Below, one piece after another: positions 21,363 through 23,206 of a stretch of 25,171 nt of DNA (positions are counted from its first letter, which is position 1; every line of letters starts with the position of its first letter). The position numbers and the translations under genes are program-made. Source of the stretch: a bacterium (lineage in GTDB: Bacteria > Patescibacteriota > Minisyncoccia > UBA6257 > UBA9933); NCBI GenBank assembly GCA_021799155.1, contig JAJZBA010000001.1, forward strand, positions 1 to 25,171, given 5' to 3'. The notes under the pieces were generated by a model. That model worked only from the letters and a program-made list of their open reading frames with translations, made no database searches and was not told the origin of the DNA.

Positions 21363-21487
21363 CGTTCGCTCCGCTCGCTACCACCGATACAAAACTACAA
21401 ATAGTTAGTGCGAATCTCCAAATAGTATATTCGTAGATTCGAATGAATTCGTAGTTTCGCATCGCGTAACAGTGAGCGAAACGAACG
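21363..21487 (-). repeat. 125-nt hairpin element, copy in the 16S 3' trailer
   Basis: 122/125 identical to 23082-23206, same orientation. Confidence 0.95.
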
Positions 21488-22819
21488 ATATCGACACTTT
21501 TTTAGTTTAGTTGTTCCACGCACAGCTTCCGCTACGCGTGCCTTGTTACGACTTCTGCCATGTCACCGAACTTACCTTAATCCCGCCTAAGCGAGACTTC
21601 AGGCACTCCCGGCTCCCTTGCAGTGACGGGCGGTGAGTACAGGACTCGAGAACGTATTCACCGCGCCATGGCTGATGCGCGATTACTAGCGATTCCAGCT
21701 TCATGAGGGCGAGTTTCAGCCCTCAATCCGAACTGAGGTCGGCTTTGATGGGATTAGCTCCGCCTTGCGGCTTGGCAAACCCATTGTACCGACCATTGTA
21801 GCATGAGTGTGGCCCAGGGCATCAAAGGGCCATGCGGATTTGACGTCATCCCCGCCTTCCTCCCCCTAATGAGGGCAGTCTTCCGAGACACTTATAACTC
21901 GGAACAGGGGTTGCGCTCGTTACCCCACTTAAGGGAACGCTTCAAAGTACGAGCTGACGACAACCATGCAGCACCTGTCCTGCCGTCCTTGAGAGACGAC
22001 CATCCTTTCGGACGATCTTCGTCAGGATTTCAAGCCCTGGTAAGGTTCCTCGTTTACCGTCGAATTAAACCTCATGCTCCACCGCTTGTGCGAGTCCCCG
22101 TCTATTCCTTTGAGTTTTAGCCTTGCGGCCGTACTTCCCAGGCGGTCCGCTTAACGCGTTAGCTTCGCCACTCCGAGGGTCGACACTCGAAACAGCTAGC
22201 GGACATCGTTTAGGGCGTGGACTACAAGGGTATCTAATCCTTTTTGCTACCCACGCTTTCGCGGCTCAGAGTCAGGAACGTCCCAGCAGAATGCCTTCGC
22301 CTTTGGTGTTCCGCACGATATCAACGGATTTCACCCCTACACCGTGCGTTCCATCTGCCTCTAACACCCTCTAGTCCAGCCGTATTCATTGCGGTTCCAA
22401 AGTTAAGCTCTGGAATTTAACAATAAACGCGCCAGACCTCCTACCCGCTCTTTACGCCCAATAAATCCGGATAACGCTTGGGGTCTCTGTATTACCGCTG
22501 CTGCTGGCACAGAGTTAGCAACCCCTTATTCAACTGGTACCATCAATCCCACTAAAAGCAGGACTTTTCCCCAGTTAAAAGCGGTTTACAATCCGAAGAC
22601 CTTCTTCCCGCACGCGGCGTCGCTCCATCAGGCTTTCGCCCATTGTGGAATATTCTCGACTGCTGCCACCCGTAGGTGTACGGCCCGTGTCTCAGTGCCG
22701 TCGTTGGAGGACAGCCTCTCAGCCCTCCTACCGGTCATAGCCTTGGTGAGCCATTACCTCACCAACTAGCTGATCGGATCTAGGCCAATCAAGCGCCGAA
22801 TACATTGCTGTATCCTTTA

Positions 22820-22996
22820 CTGCGCACCTCACTAAAGTTCAGTGCTTAAAGTGCTTAACCAAAATTCAAAAACCAAAATTCAAAACCACAAATCAAAAAC
22901 TATAAAATCTATCGTTTGAAAATTTTTACTCTGTGGTTTTGGTCTTTGATATTTAATTTTTGCTTTTTAAACACTTTACCTTAATGAGATGCGCAG
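22820..22996 (-). other. 16S helix 9 insertion (intervening-sequence-like, about 177 nt including closing stem)
   Basis: Stem CTGCGCATCTCATTAAGGT / ACTTTAGTGAGGTGCGCAG (differences all G-U compatible) encloses inverted heptamer arms; sits between AATGGT and TAAAG where helix 9 is normally a short hairpin. Confidence 0.88.
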
Positions 22997-23081
22997 ACCA
23001 TTGGGAATTATCCAATCTTTCGACTGGCTATGCCCAAGCGCTCGGTATGTACCAAGATGTTACTAACTCGTTCGCCGCTAA

Positions 23082-23206
23082 CGCTCGCTCCGCTCGCTAT
23101 CACCGATACAAAACTACAAATAGTTAGTGCGAATCTCCAAATAGTATATTCGTAGATTCGAATGAATTCGTAGTTTCGCATCGCGTAACAGTGAGCGAAG
23201 CGAACG
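23082..23206 (-). repeat. 125-nt hairpin element inserted at the tip of 16S helix 6 (V1)
   Basis: Lies between CAAGTCGAGCGAT and TTAGCGGCGAACG; folds as one long imperfect hairpin. Confidence 0.93.

Follow-up and report, generated by a model that had tools for sequence, protein, structure and literature searches.

In the genome of a Parcubacteria-type (Paceibacterota) bacterium of the candidate phyla radiation (CPR), two nearly identical copies of a palindromic element accompany the single 16S ribosomal RNA (rRNA) gene, one replacing the tip of helix 6 in the V1 region and the other lying in the trailer, just beyond the 3' end of the gene. The stretch of DNA that was analysed, hereafter the window, comprises positions 1 to 25,171 of contig JAJZBA010000001.1 in assembly GCA_021799155.1, which amounts to 478,722 bp in 67 contigs, is estimated to be 95% complete and is referred to as G000 where it is compared with relatives. 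An initial annotation, made from the letters of the window, had reported a direct repeat (122 of 125 nt identical, 23082-23206 and 21363-21487) and ascribed it to a structured element without an open reading frame (ORF), mobile or gene-converted and targeting the rRNA precursor. The repeat is confirmed with slightly wider ends, as 21363-21489 and 23082-23208 form a 127-nt direct repeat of 98% identity according to a repeat finder (124/127 by alignment), and its placement in helix 6 and beyond the 16S 3' end is borne out by Rfam models, which were applied at their gathering thresholds to place rRNA in the window and in contig C21, where the 23S gene lies. The features of the 16S locus are as follows.

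21504..23276, minus strand: 16S rRNA gene, 1773 nt (Rfam RF00177, 1399 bits, model positions 1-1533)
23082..23208, minus strand: copy A, a long-form element replacing the tip of 16S helix 6 (V1) (repeat finder, Rfam alignment and fold)
21363..21489, minus strand: copy B, an identical-type element in the 16S trailer (repeat finder and fold)
23376..23406, minus strand: leader strand of the pre-16S processing stem (31-nt inverted repeat I2, which matches 21298-21328 with 87% complementarity)
21298..21328, minus strand: trailer strand of the pre-16S processing stem (pairs with 23376-23406; TGGGACAACTAAAAAG-like and kept in the 16S trailers of relatives)
21329..21353, minus strand: small conserved hairpin separating copy B from the trailer stem strand (read from the sequence)

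Copy A consists of an inner palindromic core (about 23101-23189) with a GC-rich outer stem on either side, and appears in the Rfam alignment as 108 extra nt in the helix 6 loop, at model positions 79-83. Insertions in the V1 region of 16S occur in some Clostridia too. The 16S gene reaches 1773 nt because it contains two insertions, the helix 6 element and an unrelated one. This second insertion, 156 nt long and AT-rich, lies at 22835-22990 on the minus strand, near model position 188 (helix 9/10 region), and has an inverted repeat of its own (I1, 22857-22965). Copy B begins 15 nt beyond the 3' end of the 16S as defined by the Rfam model and belongs to the 16S precursor, since it is enclosed by the pairing of leader strand 23376-23406 with trailer strand 21298-21328. 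The stem of the small hairpin that separates copy B from the trailer strand covaries between genera (GACCGA/TCGGTC here, GTCGTG/CGCGAC in G033, a genome of another genus).

On the rRNA-sense strand both copies form a single long hairpin each (folding energies of -74.1 and -64.3 kcal/mol, with z-scores of -9.3 and -8.3, the first value of each pair being that of copy A), while the opposite strand of copy A reaches only -44.2 kcal/mol. The non-Watson-Crick pairs of the rRNA copies are mostly G-U when read in rRNA sense, and these turn into A-C mismatches on the complementary strand; as the sense strand folds far better than the antisense strand, the differences between the arms are G-U pairs in RNA, which agrees with the proposal of the initial annotation. 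Of the 47 pairs of the consensus hairpin, seven show compensatory changes. Most rRNA copies of relatives likewise fold better on the rRNA-sense strand than on its opposite. No ORF occurs in the rRNA copies, and the view of a structured element maintained at the RNA level is supported. Scans of the window and of contig C21 returned rRNA only at the element, with no intron or other Rfam family there, and an identity as group I or group II intron was dropped because no covariance-model match was obtained at the element. The group I model does match elsewhere in one relative (locus L014).

The pair described for the 16S gene is real and is not unique to it. The source genome contains four full copies of the element, all within rRNA loci and all in rRNA sense, the other two residing in the 23S gene.

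Contig C21 (locus L007) 14518-14643, 23S sense: copy in the helix 63 loop, 103 extra nt at about model position 1762
Contig C21 (locus L007) 12593-12718, 23S sense: copy in the 3' strand of helix 101 (local Rfam alignment)

Each rRNA gene of this genome therefore bears precisely two copies, which are directly oriented and 1.7-1.9 kb apart; the two members of a pair resemble each other (124/127 within 16S, 123/126 within 23S) more than they resemble those of the other gene (84-88% between 16S and 23S copies). A private duplication within the 16S gene was rejected on account of the two further 23S copies and of core copies elsewhere in the genome. Likewise rejected was the assignment of the helix 101 copy to the 23S-5S spacer, which a global Rfam alignment had suggested after being displaced by an intron of about 640 nt; read from the sequence, the 23S gene resumes past this intron, so that the copy at 12593-12718 lies within 23S. 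The intron (C21, about 12990-13640) interrupts the 23S gene at GAACGUC/GUGAGACAG, an I-CreI-type position (about 2593), and encodes a single-domain LAGLIDADG protein (ORF 13551..13099, minus strand).

The rRNA copies are the long form of an element family that is also dispersed elsewhere in the genome and is common in the order. The family is made up of TACGAAT-rich palindromes with a unit of about 85 nt, the ends of which read CGATGCGAAACTACGAAT and ATTCGTAGTTTCGCATCG; CGATGCGAAACTACGAAT and its complement form terminal inverted repeats at both ends of this core, to which the rRNA copies add the GC-rich outer stem with GCGAGCGGAGCGAG as its 3' arm. Searches of the source genome with nhmmer and blastn located five further copies of the core that lack the GC-rich outer stem, together with two half copies, giving about 11 family members. 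The orientation of the core copies was set by their asymmetric flanks (CG before, GT after) and not by nhmmer scores, which are unreliable for this purpose because the element is nearly symmetric. Four of the five core copies lie inside long open frames, those of a cysteine desulfurase (IscS), MnmA, YbeY and a YkuD-type gene, and the fifth is intergenic. In all four protein genes the core is in frame and contains no stops, and three of the genes read it in a common frame as a peptide ending ..F[AV]DS[HD]KFVVSHR, a frame that is open in the intergenic copy and has stops in the rRNA copies. Relative to solved homologues in the PDB, the segment encoded in IscS (query residues 212-243) is an insertion, as is that of MnmA (query 143-177), at a point where the E. 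coli enzyme passes in its solved structure from residue 146 to 151. In the YkuD-type L,D-transpeptidase the core is found between the membrane anchor and the domain. The copy in ybeY (locus L009, contig C54, 900-982) stands just before the zinc-binding HGxLHLxGYDH motif of YbeY, a nuclease responsible for maturing 16S at its 3' end; the encoded segment partly takes the place of the helix preceding this motif, and its status as an insertion is less clear by comparison with PDB homologues.

Of 29 MnmA orthologues compared within the bacterial family, most lack the element insertion and have a short loop at this point, and seven or eight bear other in-frame inserts at the same loop, of 147-216 nt and strongly folding. 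Protein-coding palindromes are thus general in the group, and the MnmA loop is permissive. Hairpin inserts were observed in the MnmA orthologues of loci L060, L068, L069, L074, L075, L079 and L082 (z-scores of -4.5 to -7.6), several of which have GGCTCTCGCCC..GGGCTCCGAGAC motifs in common. The cysteine desulfurase gene of the source genome contains a second in-frame insertion as well, at residues 86-135 (RKRGELGLRQRRSRR..; locus L008, contig C22, 6527-6680), which is a GC-rich hairpin of -100.6 kcal/mol with an 83%-identical copy at C46:3171-3304 and represents a different family of protein-coding palindrome.

As for the proposed targeting of the rRNA precursor, the association with rRNA is strong. 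In the source genome, four of the roughly 11 family members fall within the approximately 6.4 kb (about 1.3% of the DNA) that make rRNA precursors, which has a probability of about 1e-5 under independence and still below 1e-2 when one event is counted per locus. In other genomes of the order, about nine of 16 full-length matches lie inside rRNA genes. The presence of the core in housekeeping protein genes shows, however, that the element, though enriched in rRNA, is not confined to it. The initial annotation had offered as its own counter-case a repeat of the repetitive extragenic palindromic (REP) type lacking rRNA enrichment; the first half of this holds, in that the family is REP-like and similar to the palindromes of Rickettsia discussed below, whereas the enrichment is real.

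The distribution in relatives was established by blasting the element against 60 related genomes, 13 of which match, and with a covariance model made from five long-form copies, which was applied to 150 genomes (32 families of the order) and found 16 further genomes. The loci of relatives were mapped by blastn onto the rRNAs of the source genome, so that their helix assignments are approximate, except for helix 17 in G082. Long-form copies in rRNA occupy helix 6, helix 17 and the trailer of 16S, and domain I, helix 63 and domain V of 23S. G058, which belongs to another family of the order, has a helix 6 copy. Clean insertions of 131 nt (loop of 16S helix 17) and 148 nt (23S domain V) occur in G082 and G105 respectively, and the 23S copies of G125, G131, G171 and G108 lie within the 5' half of the gene. 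Full-length matches away from rRNA occur in G092, G072, G147, G069 and G138. The 3' outer arm GCGAGCGGAGCGAG recurs in several rRNA copies, across several families of the order. An 18-mer pattern scan of GTDB genomes yielded 119 matches, mostly the number expected by chance in unrelated phyla, and only CPR loci with both arms were kept; complete core palindromes, mostly intergenic, were found in metagenome-assembled genomes labelled Paceibacterota, Doudnabacteria, Moranbacteria, Harrisonbacteria and Saccharibacteria. A fragment of the long form occurs in a tRNA cluster of the source genome (locus L053, contig C4, 2936-2951), where a 16-mer matching the outer arm exactly (GTGAGCGAAGCGAACG) follows tRNA-Tyr at a distance of 2 nt, and the GTGAGCGAAGCGAACG motif also ends rRNA introns in G023 (L021, about 1542-1557) and G005 (L014, about 1190-1210).

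Copy B occupies a position that is conserved across the bacterial family, and this goes beyond the initial annotation, which had recorded the presence of a trailer copy. In a survey of 15 full-length 16S genes of the bacterial family and partial genes of four more genomes, the trailers have a common layout, namely the 16S tail, GTCGA, a variable hairpin slot, AAGGTGTTG, the small hairpin and the trailer stem strand. The slot, flanked by GTCGA(T) and AAGGTGTTG in 14 relatives, measures 0-25 nt in most genomes, which fill it with a short hairpin; G000 and G033 have the element there, and G028 and G063 long hairpins of other kinds. The element thus fills the slot in two of the 14 family trailers read, and helix 6 in one of the 16 helix 6 regions extracted from the family (that of the source genome), helix 6 measuring 16-59 nt in most. 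In G033 the element sits in the orthologous trailer slot with flanks as here (AAGTGTCG before, GGTGTTG after), followed by the small covarying hairpin and the same response-regulator gene. This G033 trailer copy is 99% identical to the copy in helix 63 of the G033 23S gene, the same helix 63 site as in G000, and only about 69% identical to the G000 element.

Further observations on these 16S loci were made in passing. The 3' tail of the 16S gene (window 21504-21525, minus strand) reads GGAACAACTAAAC.. where GGATCACCTCCTT is usual and contains no CCTCC anti-Shine-Dalgarno sequence, a type of tail present in all family 16S genes surveyed. The response-regulator gene directly 3' of 16S, a gene order kept across the family, starts about 11 nt past a TGGTATAAT box that overlaps the trailer stem (window 21285-21310, minus strand), a spacing which suggests that its predicted mRNA is leaderless or nearly so. 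The 16S gene of G023 (L035) contains a different palindrome of 133 nt in helix 6, a sub-hairpin of which, ATCAGTGCGGAGCACTGA, recurs in the 16S trailer of the same genome as ATCAATGCGGAGCATTGAT, with a compensatory change; this is a second case of similarity between helix 6 and trailer inside one genome. In G001 (L036) the last 75 nt or so of the 16S, from AAGTCGTAACAAGG, occur twice in tandem, which may be an assembly artefact or a real duplication.

We consider it likely that the family consists of selfish palindromic repeats maintained where sites are permissive, and that the copies in rRNA are kept as RNA hairpins and probably excised by RNase III. In a very compact genome such selfish DNA would survive only where it does little harm, which in rRNA would be the peripheral helix tips and bulges (helix 6 of 16S and helices 63 and 101 of 23S here, helix 17 of 16S and domains I and V of 23S in relatives), and elsewhere the hairpin slot of the 16S trailer and short intergenic gaps; the short form would in addition be tolerated in protein loops, translated in frame as a conserved peptide. 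Copies would be kept alike within a genome by gene conversion between repeats, which is the simplest account of their likeness because no transposase was found. The identity of about 69% at the same site across genera, against 98-99% within a genome, indicates homogenisation within each genome, and this in turn accounts for the 98% identity of the helix 6 and trailer copies. The initial annotation had remarked that recombination between the two repeats would delete most of the 16S gene; the persistence of two near-identical direct repeats around a single 16S gene is best explained by ongoing homogenisation together with removal of lethal deletions by selection. Mobility of the element and gene conversion as its mechanism, which the data support, are what we infer from these patterns of identity and occupancy.

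In the rRNA precursor, selection would act on the element as a hairpin of RNA. Duplexes longer than 50 bp are, together with RNase III, the textbook substrate for the excision without religation known from rRNA intervening sequences (IVSs), and a full-length RNase III gene is encoded in the source genome (C6:1204-1596, PF14622, 141 bits). RNase III would cut the element out in the same way, so that excision of the helix 6, helix 63 and helix 101 copies would leave the mature rRNAs fragmented, and the trailer copy would aid maturation of the 16S 3' end. We put excision of this type at about even odds, as against retention of the rRNA copies as surface expansions.

Several points weigh against this reading. 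The enrichment statistics treat linked copies as independent, and the covariance model, being made from rRNA copies, may favour rRNA-like GC stems; the matches in G082 and G105 are nonetheless clean insertions relative to the rRNA of the source genome. No above-threshold match to Y1_Tnp (PF01797), DDE_Tnp_1 (PF01609) or TnpB (PF07282), the three transposase families searched, was found in this 95%-complete genome, where extra copies or a transposase could have escaped assembly into the 67 contigs; a weak PF01797 match was rejected as it corresponds to InfC (translation factor IF-3). Comparison of the filled trailer slot of G000 with the empty ones of G017 and G024 reveals no evident duplicated flank, the flanks being short and diverged, and what speaks for mobility is the presence/absence pattern only. 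Lastly, the conserved motif of the outer arm and the uniform rRNA sense could reflect a function beyond mere tolerance. Such a function is central to an extension that we regard as unlikely, in which the long form would be a distinct hairpin class specialised for stable-RNA genes, its GCGAGCGGAGCGAG arm serving as the handle of a hairpin- or RNA-directed copying or targeting process that transfers the element, without a transposase, among rRNA helices and trailers, the ends of introns and the spacers of tRNAs, while the short form seeds peptide segments in essential enzymes. Were this true, many of the uncharacterised short rRNA insertions of CPR bacteria would largely be elements of such a kind.

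The same features invite the view that the mature ribosome keeps the hairpins as expansion segments with a function, a docking module recognised through the GCGAGCGGAGCGAG arm by some protein and displayed at several surface sites of both subunits, with the likeness of copies within a genome reflecting co-evolution with the partner. It would fit the fact that all rRNA sites of the source genome are peripheral, expansion-tolerant helices (helices 6, 63 and 101), that the outer 3' arm is kept across several families of the order, that all full copies here and most copies in the rRNA genes of relatives are in rRNA sense and stabilised by G-U pairs, and that the trailer and helix 63 sites are filled in two genera. 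Nevertheless, an identity of 98-99% that extends to loops and unpaired positions exceeds what a binding site needs and points to recent copying, and occupancy is sporadic in close relatives, most of which have short helix 6 and trailer hairpins. Protein genes and intergenic DNA contain the core too, the mature 16S as the Rfam model defines it does not include one of the copies, and RNase III is encoded; all this makes a docking module rather improbable.

Another possibility takes its cue from the pairing of copies. With two direct copies per rRNA gene, 1.7-1.9 kb apart and more alike within than between genes, near-perfect palindromes could in principle base-pair across that distance, the first copy's 5' arm joining the 3' arm of the second and its 3' arm the 5' arm of the second, to enclose the rRNA body in a long helix that acts as a processing device and forces their identity. 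However, the local hairpins form co-transcriptionally and are very stable, a normal leader/trailer stem is already present, the near-identical partners in G033 reside in unlinked genes (the 16S trailer and helix 63 of 23S) and the matches examined within rRNA, those of G082 and G105, occur singly, so that we hold such a device to be very improbable. That the assembler placed one 125-nt copy twice, or joined different populations, might be suspected in a fragmented metagenome assembly of 67 contigs, the more so as the rRNA contigs of several relatives are broken at or near such elements. Yet the two copies differ at three positions and have different and meaningful flanks, the outer leader and trailer strands are complementary, the same placements recur in independent assemblies (helix 6 in G058 and the trailer in G033, with the same response-regulator gene) and the 23S gene on another contig exhibits the matching two-copy pattern, which leaves an assembly artefact scarcely credible.

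[quoted passage not shown] This locus ties one such short insertion to a genome-wide palindrome family with at least eight or nine rRNA sites across the order, and so offers a concrete, testable origin for the short insertions. With members of the family also inside essential enzymes, YbeY among them, it would constitute, after Rickettsia, an independent second case of a reduced genome with such protein-coding palindromes, and it provides a natural system in which to see how ribosomes accommodate or dispose of 125-nt hairpins in helices 6, 63 and 101. There are practical consequences too: such repeats break rRNA contigs in metagenome assemblies and lengthen V1 and V3 amplicons, and here 125-bp direct repeats are placed around the single 16S gene.

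Among known systems, the rRNA copies are closest in anatomy to the bacterial IVSs that RNase III removes from helices 25 and 45 of 23S rRNA in Salmonella, Campylobacter and Coxiella, whose origin is suspected to be horizontal or mobile in two sources (PMC11270868, PMC4990558). Like these, the element adds some 100-150 nt in place of the tip of a peripheral rRNA helix, forms a single long, nearly perfect stem, is sporadic among close relatives in a host that encodes RNase III, and is found where IVSs are common, in a reduced genome with single rRNA copies. Unlike them, a single element family here occupies many 16S and 23S sites as well as the 16S trailer, is homogenised within the genome and has a core common to intergenic and protein-gene repeats. 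The likeness is one of anatomy and of the enzyme gene, from which we infer excision. The closest precedent in CPR bacteria is the survey of Tsurumaki et al., 2024 (PMC11270868), who reported that short non-intron insertions without ORFs are frequent in CPR rRNA genes, uncharacterised and suspected to be RNase III-dependent IVSs. According to that paper and to Brown et al., 2015, as cited there, such insertions are shorter than 200 bp, match no intron model and encode no ORF, all of which applies to the present element, and it is very probably one of them. The survey counted only insertions of at least 100 bp inside genes; the links to a palindrome family, the trailer slot, the in-frame protein inserts and the homogenisation go beyond it, as far as found.

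In being short, non-coding, dispersed and hairpin-forming, with terminal inverted repeats, the element is also similar to transposable elements of the miniature inverted-repeat type (MITEs) and to REP sequences and bacterial interspersed mosaic elements (BIMEs). In contrast to these, no cognate transposase or REP-associated tyrosine transposase (RAYT) was found with the three families searched, several copies are intragenic and compatible with translation, and no target-site duplication was seen at the trailer slot, with its short and diverged flanks; given the transposase and duplication that define them, the element is probably not a MITE in the strict sense. Our literature search on palindromic or MITE elements in CPR bacteria or Patescibacteria found nothing specific. 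For the copies in protein genes, the nearest parallel is provided by the Rickettsia palindromic elements (RPEs), described in PMC10969869 (after Ogata et al.) as palindromes inserted in frame in protein genes. Both are palindromic repeats of about 100-150 bp that lie in frame in unrelated housekeeping genes, encode a conserved peptide, have no known transposase and inhabit a reduced genome. The present host is, however, a free-standing CPR lineage and not an alphaproteobacterium, the copy number is low (about 11) and the most conspicuous copies are in rRNA genes, with an added GC-rich outer stem; the likeness is a functional analogy in which no sequence relationship is expected. As far as found, neither link had been described for this lineage, in which one family of palindromes joins an rRNA intervening sequence with an RPE-like repeat of protein genes.

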